From positions 1,742 to 25,741 of the forward strand of contig JACRHC010000072.1 in the NCBI GenBank assembly GCA_016217675.1: DNA of 24,000 nucleotides. Reading direction: 5' to 3'. Shown in pieces: positions 13,964 through 21,033 of the stretch. This DNA is from Nitrospirota bacterium. Lineage in GTDB: Bacteria > Nitrospirota > Thermodesulfovibrionia > Thermodesulfovibrionales > UBA6898. The position numbers and the translations under genes are program-made. The first letter of the stretch is position 1. Each line of letters starts with the position of its first letter. The notes under the pieces are model-generated. The model made no database searches and was not told the DNA's origin. It saw only the letters and a list, made by a program, of their open reading frames with translations.

Positions 13964-14222
13964 TTATTTTAATGTCCCTTTTACAATAACATCCACCGCC
14001 TCTTCCGGAGTAAGCCCGCGCGCCACGAGCGTCTCCATCTGTCGCTTGTCCACGCTGCTGATAGCGGCCTCATGCGTAATCTTCACAATCTCCATGCAAT
14101 CCACATGCCCGCGCGTGTTAATTGCGGTACTTTCCGCAATGCCAGATCAGAGACAGTCCAATGGCGCGGAAGTTCTCTGGCTCTTTTCTAACTAAACCAA
14201 CAGATACAAGCTCGATCTTCAT
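13964..14222 (-). pseudogene. decayed SufB/SufD-family fragment (short N-terminal ORF, frameshift, C-terminal ~60 codons)
   Basis: Minus-strand ATG 14222..14220 (ATGA overlap with the upstream stop) gives MKIELVSVGLVRKEPENFRAIGLSLIWHCGKYRN*. One frame over, 14146..13964 encodes SGIAESTAINTRGHVDCMEIVKITHEAAISSVDKRQMETLVARGLTPEEAVDVIVKGTLK*. That resembles the HEAA-iG-(i/v)d...RGl.eeeA...iv.GF C-terminus of SufB/D proteins. The bulk of such a protein is missing. Confidence 0.45.
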
Positions 14223-14494
14223 GATGGATGCTGACCTTTGACAATCTCGCCCGCAAGCGAATCAATATCGTATAATGCGTCTTGAGAGATATATTTCTTC
14301 TCCTGTGAGTATTGTATCATCTTATCAACGACAGCCCGGAATTCCTCTTTCATGGTAGCCAGCTCACCCATGCCGTCACACCCCTTCTGCCTCTGTCTTG
14401 CGAGCAGATAGATATGAGCATACTCACTCGCATCGGAAAGAAGCCTTGCAAGCTGGTTGTCTGATTTTGATGCCTGTTGAATTGCGTTGAGCAT
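14219..14494 (-). CDS. hypothetical helical protein, 91 aa, no recognisable motif
   Basis: ORF in operon context, preceded by GGGAGAAAAAGA before the ATG. I recognised no motif, so coding status is inferred from position and length only. Confidence 0.5.
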   Translation of the reverse strand: MLNAIQQASKSDNQLARLLSDASEYAHIYLLARQRQKGCDGMGELATMKEEFRAVVDKMIQYSQEKKYISQDALYDIDSLAGEIVKGQHPS

Positions 14495-14511
14495 TCTTTT
14501 TCTCCCAATTG

Positions 14512-14557
14512 AACGGCCCTGCAGTGTGTGCGTGCTGCACTCCGCTGCAAGGCCGTT
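14512..14557 (-). other. large intergenic hairpin (13-bp stem, 20-nt structured loop) between the AhpD-like gene and the 91-aa ORF
   Basis: The arms are aacggccctgcag and ctgcaaggccgtt. The single non-Watson-Crick position is G-U on the minus-strand RNA but C-A on the plus strand, so the element fits the transcribed strand. The loop holds an inner GUGC-A-GCAC mini-hairpin. No U-tract follows. Confidence 0.5.
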
Positions 14558-14581
14558 TCACGGTAACCTGCTGACCGTTTG

Positions 14582-14842
14582 TTAACTACATCCGCAACCT
14601 GCTGCAGCCGGAGCGCCGGCATTCGATGGTGCAGTCTTACTGATAGTTGCAGCGAACTGATCCATCTTTCCCGCAGCGCCCTTCCTGACCGCTTTTGCAA
14701 CTTCGATTGCCTCTGCAATTTCAAAGTCGCTGGCACCGCTTTCCAGTGCCTTCTCAACATGGTACTGCAGACACGGTTGGCAGTTTGCGGTTACTGATGC
14801 CCCGATTGCGATCAATTCTGTAATGCGATTATCAAGCTTCAT
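14582..14842 (-). CDS. AhpD-like / carboxymuconolactone decarboxylase (CMD) family protein with CxxC and a C-terminal GCGCS tail
   Basis: 86-aa ORF: ELIAIGASVTANCQPCLQYHVEKALESGASDFEIAEAIEVA matches the CMD/AhpD helix-CxxC-helix pattern. It ends in an Ala/Pro-rich tail, PSNAGAPAAAGCGCS. A strong SD GGAAGGAGGTGAT is present. Confidence 0.75.
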   Translation of the reverse strand: MKLDNRITELIAIGASVTANCQPCLQYHVEKALESGASDFEIAEAIEVAKAVRKGAAGKMDQFAATISKTAPSNAGAPAAAGCGCS

Positions 14843-14898
14843 GGTATATCACCTCCTTCCTGTTTCTATAGACGAGGAAGGGGCAGAAAAAGATACAC

Positions 14899-15528
14899 CT
14901 ATTTTTCTTTAAATCTCAGAGGAGTGGAAATCCGTTCGCAGGCCAGTTCATTGCGGTCATCACGATAGAGATTGCATTTCGCCTTCAGTTCTTTTCTCAG
15001 GCGTGTTCTGGCCCTGTGCAGTCTGATCTTTACGGTATCGGCAGATATGCCGAGGATAGCAGCGATCTCACCGCTGCTCAGCTCTTCAAAATCACTCAGC
15101 ACCAGCACGGTGCGATAGTTTTCCGGCAGCCCATCCGCAATGCCCCGGATACAGTCATTCATTTCCTTCTTGATAAGAGAAGTCTCCAGAGAAGGTTTAT
15201 GGTCTTCCACCCGTAGATACCTGTCCTCAGCCTCTTCGTCATCGTCTCCCCGCTGAACAACGGCAGCCCCTTTCTGCAATGAAAGTGCCCGCAGCCTGTC
15301 CAGTGCAGCGTTGGTTGCAATTTTATAGATCCATGTTGAAAGAGTTGATTTCCCCTTGAAAAACTTCAGACCACGACCGACCTTTATAAAGACGTCCTGG
15401 GCCAGATCATCCGCTTCAGTTTCGTTTACAATGCGCGCCAGATAGCGCCGTATTTTCTCGTTGAAAGCGAGATAGATATCCTGAAACGCCTGATCGAAAG
15501 CCATACTTTCATTTATCATGCAGGGCAC
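14899..15528 (-). CDS. ECF-type sigma-70 family sigma factor with a short Cys-containing C-terminal extension
   Basis: Region 2 reads ADDLAQDVFIKV...STWIYKIATNAALDRLR. Region 4 reads LSSGEIAAILGISADTVKIRLHRARTRLRKEL. The extra tail is KAKCNLYRDDRNELACERISTPLRFKEK. The track start is GTG 15528; ATG 15519 is an alternative. Confidence 0.85.
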   Translation of the reverse strand: MPCMINESMAFDQAFQDIYLAFNEKIRRYLARIVNETEADDLAQDVFIKVGRGLKFFKGKSTLSTWIYKIATNAALDRLRALSLQKGAAVVQRGDDDEEAEDRYLRVEDHKPSLETSLIKKEMNDCIRGIADGLPENYRTVLVLSDFEELSSGEIAAILGISADTVKIRLHRARTRLRKELKAKCNLYRDDRNELACERISTPLRFKEK

Positions 15529-15534
15529 CTATTG

Positions 15535-19391: not shown

Positions 19392-19393
19392 TC

Positions 19394-19765
19394 TCAGCAG
19401 CACCTTTTCTTATCGTTGAGAGGAACAACCTTCCCTCTCGTTCCCTTGCCATGGATGAAATCGTTCAGCCTGGATAAATCTCCGGCCATAAACTTCGTAT
19501 CGATCTTCTCTGTGACTGATAGTACAAGCATTCGCCTGAACATATCATCTGCTTCGATTCTGTAATGCGTCCATTTCCCCTGCTTCCGGTCCTTGATCAA
19601 GCCGGCCTCTTTCAGTGCGTTCAGGTGAAAGGAGATCTTCGGCTGGCTCATATCCAGTGCAGCGACAAGATCGCAGACGCAGAGTTCCCCGCCTTCCAGC
19701 AGCTTAATGATCCTGAGCCTCGTCTCCTCCGCAAGCGCCTTAAATACAACAAGAAGATCTTCCAT
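19394..19765 (-). CDS. arsR: ArsR/SmtB-family metalloregulator with ELCVCDL site and C-terminal vicinal cysteines
   Basis: 123-aa [53 protein letters not shown] is the winged-HTH with the ArsR As(III)-site motif ELCVCDL; a third Cys of that site is absent. The protein ends ...NDKKRCC. Confidence 0.88.
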
Positions 19766-19771
19766 ATTCTT

Positions 19772-20011
19772 CTAACCCTCCGTTTTTATCATTTCTTTCA
19801 CCTTCTCAAGGCTCGGCAACGGTTTGCCGGAGTGTTTGAGTTTACCGTTCACCACGAGCCCAGGGGTGGACATGGTATATTTCATGATCTCCTGAAGATC
19901 GGCAATCTTCTCGATCCTTGCTTCAATGCGGAGTTCCCTGACAGCGGTCTGAGCCAGTTTTTCCATTGTGTGACAGTTTGCACATCCTGGCCCTAATATT
20001 TTGATTTCCAT
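19772..20011 (-). CDS. small thioredoxin-fold protein (redox-active disulfide protein 2-like)
   Basis: MEIKILGPGCANCHTMEKL...IMKYTMSTPGLVVNGKL matches the ~80-aa CxxC family usually paired with COG0701 permeases. The start is placed at ATG 20011, 7 nt after AGGAGG. The track start at 20017 is only 1 nt from the SD. Confidence 0.8.
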   Translation of the reverse strand: MEIKILGPGCANCHTMEKLAQTAVRELRIEARIEKIADLQEIMKYTMSTPGLVVNGKLKHSGKPLPSLEKVKEMIKTEG

Positions 20012-20022
20012 ATTCATGCCTC

Positions 20023-20973
20023 CTATAAAATCGCATTAAAAAGATATCCGACCGCAGTAATAGTTACCGTCATGATCCCGACAAATACTGCAAGCAAAGG
20101 GACCTTTAACACTTTCCTCAAAATGATCATCTCCGGAAGGGAGAGCGCTGTTACTGCCATCATAAAGGCGAGCACGGTCCCCGTGCTCAGGCCCTTCTCC
20201 ATAAGAGCATAGACGATCGGGATCACACCAGCTGCATTTGAGTAGAGCGGGACGCCAAGCGCCACCGCAATGGGTACTGCGAAGGGATTCTGAGGTCCTG
20301 CATATTTCACCAGAAAATCCTGGGGAACATACCCGTGGATGAAACCACCTATACCTATGGCGACAATAATATAAGGCCAGACTTTTTTCACGATATCGAT
20401 AGTGTTCCATTTTGCATATTGCAGGCGGTCTTTGAAGACCTGCTTTGCAATTTCCTGGCCCTCGCCGATCCGGATCTTATAAACATATTCCTGCACCCAC
20501 TTTTCGAGTTTCAGTCTGCCGATAATAAACCCGCCAATTAAGGCAACAAACAGGCCTGTACCCAGATAGAGCGCAGCGATCTTCCAGCCGAAGAGTCCCC
20601 AGAGAAGAACTACAGCCACCTCATTTACCATTGGTGAGGAGATCAGAAAAGAGAAGGTTACCCCAAGGGGTACACCAGCCTCTATGAAGCCTATAAACAG
20701 GGGAACAGCTGAGCAGGAACAAAATGGAGTAACAATTCCCAGGAGTGCGGCAAGGATATTTCCTATAAACTCTTTTTTATGCGAAAGTATTTTCTTCGTG
20801 CGCTCGGGAGGGAAGTAACTTCTGATAAAAGAAACAGCGAATATGATGATCATGAGGAGCAGGAAGATCTTGATTGTGTCGTATATGAAAAATTCTACTG
20901 CAGCTGCGAGTTTTGAATCCGGCGCAAGGGACAGCCAGTTGTAGGTGACAAGAGAGGAGAATTCATGGAGCAT
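20023..20973 (-). CDS. COG0701-type permease (ArsP-like, vicinal-Cys motif)
   Basis: 316-aa polytopic membrane protein. The motif GIVTPFCSCSAVPLFIGFIEAGVPLG is characteristic of this permease family, of which ArsP organoarsenical efflux permeases are members. Confidence 0.8.
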   Translation of the reverse strand: MLHEFSSLVTYNWLSLAPDSKLAAAVEFFIYDTIKIFLLLMIIIFAVSFIRSYFPPERTKKILSHKKEFIGNILAALLGIVTPFCSCSAVPLFIGFIEAGVPLGVTFSFLISSPMVNEVAVVLLWGLFGWKIAALYLGTGLFVALIGGFIIGRLKLEKWVQEYVYKIRIGEGQEIAKQVFKDRLQYAKWNTIDIVKKVWPYIIVAIGIGGFIHGYVPQDFLVKYAGPQNPFAVPIAVALGVPLYSNAAGVIPIVYALMEKGLSTGTVLAFMMAVTALSLPEMIILRKVLKVPLLAVFVGIMTVTITAVGYLFNAIL

Positions 20974-20974
20974 G

Positions 20975-21002
20975 TATCATATAAACATAGGTTTATATGA
21001 TA
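20975..21002. promoter_or_regulatory. perfect 12-4-12 palindrome abutting the permease start codon; candidate ArsR operator overlapping a promoter
   Basis: TATCATATAAAC-atag-GTTTATATGATA has perfect arms and ends 1 nt from the ATG at 20973. On the minus strand a TTGACA hexamer (21008..21003) lies immediately upstream: TTGACAtatcatataaacctatgTTTATAtgatacATG. Confidence 0.5.
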
Positions 21003-21033
21003 TGTCAACGCCATGAATCCCTTCTCTCAGCCT

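Follow-up and report, generated by a model that had tools for sequence, protein, structure and literature searches.

hgcAB within a clade-conserved string of arsenic and thiol-redox genes in an uncultured Nitrospirota bacterium

Genes and features of the locus

We analysed a 24,000-nucleotide (nt) stretch (the window) of contig JACRHC010000072.1 from the Nitrospirota assembly GCA_016217675.1, in which the mercury methylation genes hgcA and hgcB lie inside a continuous string of arsenic- and thiol-related genes. Recomputation of all open reading frames (ORFs) places 12 of them on the minus strand between a palindrome at 20975–21002 and position 14219. Their order is ArsP_1 permease, ArsE-like thioredoxin, ArsR, ACR3, a thioredoxin-fold lipoprotein (TrxL), a small Cys-rich ORF (cysU), HgcA, HgcB, CcdA, extracytoplasmic function (ECF) sigma factor, AhpD/CMD-like protein and orf12. 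The junctions are, from head to tail, +5, +6, +2, −4 (ATGA), −4, +82, −4, +1, +6, +56 and +87 nt. Every spacing reported in the initial annotation was reproduced, and all of its gene assignments are upheld by profile searches (Pfam, NCBIfam/TIGR). Its count of thirteen ORFs needs correction: 12 lie within 14219–21008, but the thirteenth is a 34-codon, ATGA-overlapping relic beyond 14219. Likewise, its +6 gap between ccdA and the sigma factor gene is obtained from a GTG at 15528, but the likelier ATG at 15519 makes the gap +15.

The permease gene (20023–20973) encodes a 316-residue ArsP_1-family protein with a TPFCSCS motif (Pfam PF03773, 277 bits), which falls under the SaoE and SO_0444 cut-offs (SaoE, 129 versus 325 bits). 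It is followed by trxS (19772–20017), encoding a small MTH895/ArsE-type thioredoxin-like protein of 81 residues with a CANC motif (TIGR00412, 85 bits, cut-off 62; Pfam Thioredoxin_3). The product of arsR (19394–19765) has 123 residues, an ELCVCD motif containing Cys29 and Cys31, and a C-terminal CC; it matches HTH_5 and NF033788 (100 bits), and scores 91 bits against PRK10141, slightly below the cut-off of 97. The ACR3 arsenite efflux carrier (acr3, 18306–19391) has 361 residues and scores 461 bits with TIGR00832 (cut-off 283). No LMWPc or ArsC ORF occurs in the window string; arsC, which is common in ars operons and not obligatory, is present in the related loci L083, L168 and L172. TrxL (trxL, 17920–18309) has 129 residues, a signal peptide ending in ...FGGC and a CIPC active site, and matches Pfam Thioredoxin_2 and Thioredoxin. 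The cysU ORF (17696–17923) comprises 75 codons with an in-frame TGA at 17750–17752.

HgcA (hgcA, 16519–17613; 364 residues) scores 392 bits with NF040863 (cut-off 275). It carries the cap-helix motif GINVWCAAGKG, invariant in the alignment with 12 other HgcA sequences, and its C-terminal half is hydrophobic, so that both the cap helix and the C-terminal transmembrane portion expected of HgcA are present. An in-frame deletion of ∼30 codons at the N-terminus (∼17560–17613) removes a CC-containing segment present in relatives of the clade, KPG..E....CCGP.... The N-terminal CC is found in 10 of the 12 other aligned sequences; P0098/L084 also has no such segment, and P0094 has no adjacent Cys pair. 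CU/CC motifs have been reported at the N-terminus of most HgcA proteins (Haft & Gwadz, bioRxiv 10.1101/2022.07.06.499078). HgcB (hgcB, 16226–16522; 98 residues) is a two-[4Fe-4S] ferredoxin whose gene overlaps hgcA by ATGA (NF040864, 121 bits, cut-off 99). It has two CX2CX2CX3C motifs and ends in ...NGDCC, a terminal CC akin to the CU/CC theme of Haft & Gwadz. The next gene, ccdA (15535–16224), starts 1 nt past the hgcB stop and encodes a CcdA-type transmembrane thiol-disulfide transporter of 229 residues (Pfam DsbD_TM PF02683, 90 bits), with two Pro-Cys motifs, SPCVLA and SPCATP, that have one Cys each.

The ECF sigma factor gene (14899–15519) encodes 206 residues from the ATG at 15519 and has sigma-70 regions 2 and 4 only (Sigma70_r2 PF04542; r4_2 PF08281; TIGR02937, 101 bits, cut-off 43). 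This start is preceded by an AGGTG Shine-Dalgarno sequence, and homologues begin with MINES. Three Cys are conserved in the protein, one of them within MNDCIRG and the other two within a KC-x11-C tail at the C-terminus. No anti-sigma gene adjoins the sigma factor gene, the next gene being that for the AhpD/CMD-like protein (14582–14842). The sigma factor may resemble the Cys-rich metal-sensing ECF sigma factors, and our guess is that it may sense a thiol or metal directly. The AhpD/CMD-like protein comprises a CMD core of 86 residues with a CQPC motif and a GCGCS tail (Pfam CMD, 49.6 bits; TIGR00778), and AhpD domains that are fused to arsenite methyltransferases are among its closest named relatives.

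Conservation of the neighborhood

A clade of relatives was assembled through homologue look-ups with HgcA and the small protein, contigs were fetched for HgcA of 69–83% identity, and loci (given here by L numbers) were scored by tblastn with the window's proteins. A scan of the genome-contig collection found no close relative, the best match being 68%, and close relatives were few among the matches listed from a metagenome collection. All 11 independent contigs with HgcA 69–83% identical to that of the window have ars genes immediately ahead of hgcA and in the same orientation: L081, L083, L085, L093 (downstream part only), L109, L165, L166, L167, L168, L171 and L172. L172 (HgcA 73%) has the nearly complete order, perm-trxS-arsR-arsC-acr3-trxL-cysU-hgcA-hgcB-ccdA-ECF-CMD-SufC-SufBD; L083, L167 and L168 share the core order of the window, and L081 keeps the core without the small ORF. 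The trxL/ccdA bracket is missing from L165, L166 and L171, which retain the ars genes upstream and the ECF sigma factor downstream. The presence of arsC, arsD and arsA between the permease and TrxL in L168 identifies the upstream block as a genuine ars operon. Among clade relatives, the permease is 77–94% and ACR3 84–95% identical.

The ECF sigma factor and CMD genes follow hgcAB(-ccdA) in the window, L165, L083, L171, L172 and L019, and the sigma factor gene alone does so in L166. The CMD protein is 96% identical in L165, 83% in L083, 75% in L172 and 64% in L019.

Tight spacing by itself is ordinary for operons; what puts the arrangement beyond chance is that independent contigs show the same gene order again and again. 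The integration of hgcAB is real and clade-conserved, and extends the published arsenic–mercury link. The idea, raised with the initial annotation, that the neighborhood might be unconserved in related hgcAB carriers is contradicted by the 11 contigs with ars genes upstream and by the near-full order of L172. A wider comparison for the same gene set, which the initial annotation had also called for, gives a divided answer. The set is kept in the clade, but only 28 of 76 species-representative hgcAB loci with usable flanks have at least one such gene type within 6 kb on the same strand (ArsR in 18, ACR3 in 9, CcdA-like in 5, TrxL in 3 and ECF/CMD in 1). The arrangement is lineage-specific and, as the other 48 loci have none of these neighbors, any coupling between them and hgcAB is not general.

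TrxL and ccdA flank hgcAB on both sides only in this clade. In the window, L081, L083, L167, L168 and L172, trxL lies 0.5–0.8 kb upstream of hgcA and ccdA lies 1 nt past the hgcB stop, and the hgcB-ccdA junction TGCTGCTGAnATGGA is kept in 6 loci. In distant loci that hold both genes (L004, L055/L113, L063, L066, L092, L100, L119 and L171), trxL is immediately followed by ccdA, and L169 has an ArsR-TrxL-cysU-CcdA unit without hgcAB. Based on these distant neighbors and the L169 unit, the simplest reading is that the unit existed first and that hgcAB entered it between cysU and ccdA. In L165 and L166, both TrxL and CcdA have been lost.

The L169 contig (1–8937) has further genes of this kind: after an ars operon, ACR3-ArsD-ArsA, come genes for a corrinoid protein of MtrA-like type, TrxL, a Metallophos protein, CcdA and an S-adenosylmethionine methyltransferase, and then the second ArsR-TrxL-small ORF-CcdA. 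The MtrA-like protein is another corrinoid protein in a similar slot.

CcdA and a membrane-anchored thioredoxin form the established reducing pair of system II cytochrome c maturation. The napA-G-H-B-D operon (21034–23997), which encodes the c-type cytochrome NapB, lies directly upstream on the same strand and ends 60 nt from the string, and this nap-ars-hgc adjacency is common to the window, L165 and L167. TrxL and CcdA could, on these grounds, be ordinary ResA/CcdA-like reductants for nap, unrelated to ars or hgc. However, L165 has nap without trxL and ccdA; L081, L083, L168 and L172 have both genes and no nap upstream; and the distant trxL-ccdA pairs travel with ArsR, ArsP_1 and Trx3. Since the presence and absence of the pair does not track nap, we reject this role, which we regard as highly improbable. 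The known CcdA-ResA and CcdA-Etrx systems (PMC3914529) likewise combine a CcdA of six transmembrane helices and two Pro-Cys motifs with an exported CxxC thioredoxin lipoprotein. They serve cytochrome c maturation or methionine sulfoxide reductase, whereas the pair in the window travels with ArsR, ArsP_1 and ACR3 and brackets hgcAB.

A parallel is found in the Bacteroidales, where hgcAB is associated with membrane proteins of the DsbD superfamily. Twelve loci, most of them from Bacteroidales, have a gene for a DsbD_2-like membrane protein with CC and CNACC motifs in the 2.5 kb that precede hgcA, in the same orientation. In L072 (8334–11363), the genes are ArsR, a Cys-rich 86-residue membrane peptide (GCGC, CC, CC, CC), the DsbD_2-like protein, hgcA (ATGA overlap) and hgcB; the pattern also occurs in L053, L058, L070, L130, L135, L143 and L155. 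No NCBIfam model covers the 86-residue peptide or the DsbD_2-like protein upstream of hgcA. With the CcdA of our clade, this makes a DsbD-superfamily protein beside hgcAB recurrent across phyla.

Putative head promoter, proposed transcription unit and placement of hgcAB

The string is headed by a putative promoter consisting of a −35-like hexamer TTGACA (21003–21008, minus strand) and a −10-like TATATG (20978–20983, minus strand) inside a conserved GTTTATAT block. The palindrome (20975–21002) is a perfect 12-4-12 repeat, TATCATATAAAC-CTAT-GTTTATATGATA, with arms at 20975–20986 and 20991–21002; its 12-nt arms are 100% complementary across a 4-nt spacer. It overlaps the promoter spacer and the −10 region and abuts the permease ATG. 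Since it covers the spacer and the −10 region, it lies where a repressor would sit, and it is a candidate ArsR operator from which As(III) would release the regulator. A scan of the window with the palindrome arm gave 8 matches at up to 2 mismatches (1.3 expected), with perfect copies only at the two arms, and no second operator copy near hgcA or the sigma factor gene.

The hexamer TTGAC(A/T) occupies the same position upstream of the permease in nine loci (L165, L167, L166, L083, L168, L092, L004, L171 and L172), and a TTGACA...TTTATAT promoter with the GTTTATAT block is common to the string heads of 10 loci. A dyad around TTTATAT is also seen in relatives, and the L004 promoter reads TTGACA-N16-TATAAT. 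In the window, the permease ATG lies 4 nt past the −10-like element with no Shine-Dalgarno sequence, and L165 and L167 are alike (4–5 nt), which predicts a leaderless permease mRNA. The other seven loci have instead a 20–35 nt leader with a GGAGG Shine-Dalgarno sequence.

The ELCVCD(L) motif of ArsR, with Cys29 and Cys31, is the canonical α3 As(III) site. It is kept in 8 relatives (L167, L165, L081, L166, L085, L092, L100 and L004), and the CC tail is conserved in relatives as well.

Downstream of the head, a consensus promoter/terminator scan found no terminator-like site in any intergenic gap of the string, so the terminators that, according to the initial annotation, might isolate hgcAB do not appear. 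The start that it envisaged in the 82-nt gap before hgcA is a less clear-cut matter. The gap is absent in L167, where the cysU stop overlaps the hgcA start, and only 26 nt separate trxL from hgcA in L081, so that a promoter in the gap is not essential in the clade; but weak, conserved promoter-like blocks are present here. These blocks are what would allow hgcAB(-ccdA-sigma) to be transcribed separately, from a promoter in the gap or in cysU, with the ars genes as an independent operon. The spacer is the largest gap upstream of hgcA. The sequence TTGATC-N17-TGAAAT is found in it, blocks of a similar kind occur in L165, L083 and L109, and there is a strong Shine-Dalgarno sequence, AAGGAGG. Its −10-like element is, however, weak with an unconserved final T, no terminator-like element follows cysU, and L167 and L081 have, respectively, no gap and only 26 nt at this point. 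We therefore consider two separate units unlikely.

Our preferred reading, with a probability of about 65%, is that this uncultured Nitrospirota has here an ars-type operon under ArsR control, of which hgcAB became an internal part. In such an operon, ArsR would occupy the palindrome overlapping the −10 region until it is released by the binding of As(III), or of another thiophilic metal(loid), to Cys29/Cys31. One long transcript would then allow all products to be made together: the two efflux carriers (ACR3 and ArsP_1), the cytoplasmic ArsE-like thioredoxin, a CcdA-to-TrxL route carrying reducing power to the periplasmic face, the small Fe-S/selenocysteine protein and HgcAB. The Cys-bearing ECF sigma factor without an anti-sigma factor and the AhpD-like thiol protein could extend the response. 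We infer co-transcription, induction and any roles of the neighbors in methylation from the sequence. From the proposed single ArsR-controlled transcript, it would follow that HgcAB is expressed within a metal(loid)/thiol-stress programme in this lineage. The initial annotation had proposed placing HgcAB in such a stress response. The physical integration, the As(III)-type ArsR and the head promoter favor that placement, but it would apply to this lineage and not to hgcAB loci at large.

Several observations weigh against an ArsR-governed operon. The crude consensus scan did not call the head promoter itself, and the TTGAYC...TGAAAT-like blocks of the 82-nt gap, partly conserved, are a potential internal promoter. 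The unit may also end before orf12, at a GC-rich inverted repeat (14512–14557, minus strand; 13 bp, 20-nt loop) in the 87-nt gap after the AhpD-like gene; with no T-run following, this hairpin may be a transcript end or a stabilizer. At the other end, no terminator is predicted in the 60 nt between the nap operon and the string, and read-through from nap is possible. Finally, ∼63% of the species-level hgcAB loci (48 of 76) have none of these neighbors, and gene content around hgcAB varies even within the clade (Metallophos, arsDA, loss of trxL/ccdA), as would also be expected of a passive insertion into a plastic island.

Such passive hitch-hiking is in our view doubtful. Under it, hgcAB would have arrived horizontally in a plastic island of arsenic and thiol genes, would owe its transcription from the ars promoter to its landing site alone, and would have functionally irrelevant neighbors. 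In addition to the variable flanks and the many loci without these neighbors, the conflict between hgcAB phylogeny and species trees (PMC7438021) is in its favor. So is the fact that hgcAB does not keep a fixed place with respect to the module: here it lies inside, in L092 it is downstream, in L004 it is upstream, and in L100 it is found at a distance of 4.4 kb. TrxL-cysU-CcdA and ArsP_1-cysU units also exist without hgcAB. However, ars- or DsbD-type genes recur beside hgcAB in unrelated phyla and in different arrangements, which argues for repeated selection: ArsR and ACR3 are found in 18 and 9 of the 76 representatives, and the DsbD_2-like gene lies close upstream of hgcA in the 12 loci noted above, with the ATGA overlap in L072. 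Moreover, the translational-coupling junctions are kept across HgcA identities of 73–83%, and deletion of hgcAB in Pseudodesulfovibrio mercurii ND132 changed As(V) sensitivity (bioRxiv 10.1101/2022.10.17.512643).

A further proposal, that the neighbors supply the substrate of HgcAB, we consider a long shot in either of two versions. In the first, TrxL, CcdA and the cytoplasmic Sec/Cys mini Fe-S protein would form a ligand-exchange relay by analogy with MerP-MerT. A thiophilic metal(loid), either Hg(II) or As(III), would pass through the membrane in this way, and the CC tail of HgcB would receive it before HgcA. The Bacteroidales form would use the DsbD_2-like protein (CC, CNACC), ATGA-joined to hgcA, and the Cys-rich membrane peptide before it. 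If true, this would be the long-sought uptake route for methylation. In the second, the native job of HgcAB would be corrinoid-dependent As(III) methylation, and ArsP_1 would export methylarsenite; no arsM is present in the operon.

So far, the literature offers an ArsR-like regulator and scattered ars neighbors as clues to the purpose of HgcAB and to the delivery of Hg(II) to it. Genes such as acr3, arsC, arsM or arsR have been described flanking hgcAB (McDaniel et al. 2020, PMC7438021, Fig. 6; Zhang et al. 2023, PMC10349881; Peterson et al. 2025, PMC11984097), with ACR3 and ArsR beside hgcAB in diverse metagenome-assembled genomes, as in 9 and 18 of our 76 representatives. These three papers describe no CcdA/thioredoxin bracket, small selenoprotein or ECF sigma/CMD pair. 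Our literature search found no paper naming hgcA together with CcdA, DsbD or cytochrome c biogenesis proteins, and none describing this Nitrospirota arrangement. The full integration had been called unusual at first; its ars-hgcAB part is already published, so that only the TrxL/CcdA bracket, the small probable selenoprotein and the ECF sigma/CMD pair can be so called. As a natural case, the locus places hgcAB in an ars operon of the canonical As(III) type, with a recognizable promoter and candidate operator. It also supplies candidate partners in the CcdA and periplasmic thioredoxin bracket, the small probable selenoprotein upstream of hgcA, and the AhpD-like protein with its anti-sigma-less ECF sigma factor.

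The closest experimental parallel is P. mercurii ND132, in which ArsR2 is co-transcribed with hgcAB, controls it and is arsenic-responsive (Gionfriddo et al. 2023; bioRxiv 10.1101/2022.10.17.512643); the initial annotation had pointed to this control. The same work reported that hgcAB deletion altered As(V) sensitivity. As in the window, the ND132 arsR2-hgcA-hgcB locus has a co-oriented ArsR/SmtB regulator upstream. However, the site of ArsR2 is a different one, with four Cys, and ND132 has no further ars gene at this locus. The ArsR of the window has the classical ELCVCD, and its gene, the fourth ahead of hgcA, belongs to a full string of efflux and thiol-redox genes; regulation by it is a prediction from sequence. 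ND132 ‘operon C’ (ArsR5-ArsP-ArsE(PF13192)-DGC), which is arsenic-induced in that strain, contains the same trio of ArsR, ArsP_1 permease and PF13192 thioredoxin, and a DGC-domain gene is likewise present downstream in L083 and L166. Operon C is separate from hgcAB in ND132, whereas the trio heads the hgcAB string in the window.

The SAO system (bioRxiv 10.1101/2022.07.06.499078) similarly clusters an ArsP_1-family pump (SaoE-related), a thioredoxin-like protein and Sec/vicinal-Cys motifs around organometal chemistry. Unlike that system, the window has a permease far below the SaoE cut-off, no SaoL/MerB-like gene, and an HgcA without the N-terminal CC/CU segment.

The small UGA-containing protein and flanking regions

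The small ORF cysU probably encodes a selenoprotein, as several sequence features suggest. The UGA is at the same codon in 7 loci, and the frame after it is kept as CLGDVRRV(A/V)DK(A/V)KG. On read-through, the score with NF047645 (CopZ_Nterm_CC) increases from 41 to 57 bits, and the match then extends to the profile's end. This profile describes a CC family, and the distant homologues P0198 and P0199 have CC at the UGA position; two close homologues have Arg or Gly at this codon and the frame continues. A hairpin resembling a selenocysteine insertion sequence (SECIS), UGUUCGC-CGUGUU-GCGGACA (17719–17738, minus strand; 7 bp), begins 11 nt past the UGA. Pairing is complete (100%) in 6 sequences, where two changes preserve wobble pairs and double compensatory changes are absent; the folding energy is unexceptional (z=−0.94). 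After the UGA, 7 of 11 codons have an invariant third position, against 12 of 47 before it (p=0.02). Rfam, at the gathering threshold, has no match in the whole window, SECIS families included. No selA, selB or selD and no tRNA gene, tRNA-Sec included, were found in the window or in 12 related loci.

The motif CYC...CNC...(U)C makes cysU a candidate [2Fe-2S] protein of the BFD/CopZ N-terminal type. The protein aligns weakly with the [2Fe-2S] part of the N-terminal domain of A. fulgidus CopZ (PDB 2HU9), and for an AlphaFold model of the Arg variant (predicted local distance difference test, pLDDT, 89.9) the best fold match, a weak one, is Bfd. The CYC...C...NP.GR(C/U)C motif of the CopZ N-terminal domain, CopZ_Nterm_CC and CopZ_Nterm_CU aligns with cysU, and one of these NCBIfam relatives is itself a CU selenoprotein family. 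In contrast to the CopZ_Nterm families, cysU would be a free-standing 75-residue domain, and it scores below both cut-offs (57 versus 100 and 29 versus 190 bits). Its selenocysteine would be first in the pair, whereas that of CopZ_Nterm_CU is second.

The small protein also occurs without hgcAB, in TrxL-cysU-CcdA and ArsP_1-cysU units, and thus belongs to the thiol module rather than to hgcAB. Of its 79 database clusters, at least 75 end at 47–61 residues, i.e. at the UGA, and source-named members are labelled hypothetical. For annotation, this means that the entries of these clusters end prematurely.

An alternative frame, the ORF 17601–17753 (MMPRRCSPCCGQ...), was considered as a Cys-rich N-terminal extension of HgcA. 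It runs into hgcA in L167 and has stops in L165, and was rejected. Its conservation can be attributed to nucleotide conservation of the hairpin, and the family and homologue evidence favors the cysU frame.

FmdE-domain, TauE and DsrC-like genes recur beside ArsP_1, the small ORF or CcdA in L081 (12293–14451), L170 (538–7201) and L171 (2920–3540), which hints at a wider sulfur or selenium handling island.

At the tail of the string, orf12 (14219–14494, minus strand) encodes a conserved 91-residue protein with no Pfam or NCBIfam family match. It has homologues in L165, L093, L083, L168, L092, L171 and L172, and is 76% identical to an 87-residue ORF of L081 that precedes SufC/SufBD-like genes. 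Beyond it (13964–14222), a 34-codon ORF overlaps the orf12 stop and is followed by a C-terminal SufBD fragment (13967–14146, approximately the last 60 codons). These are deletion remnants of the SufC/SufBD-like genes that are intact in L081 and L172, and indicate that an Fe-S assembly pair once stood at the end of the string. Between the SufBD remnant and a block of PhnD-like, histidine kinase, sigma-54 regulator and rhodanese genes, the window has genes for a GGDEF protein, a PilZ protein and a PAS hybrid histidine kinase (10059–13885). This segment looks like an insertion in the window's lineage, as the same downstream block follows directly in L165 and L081.

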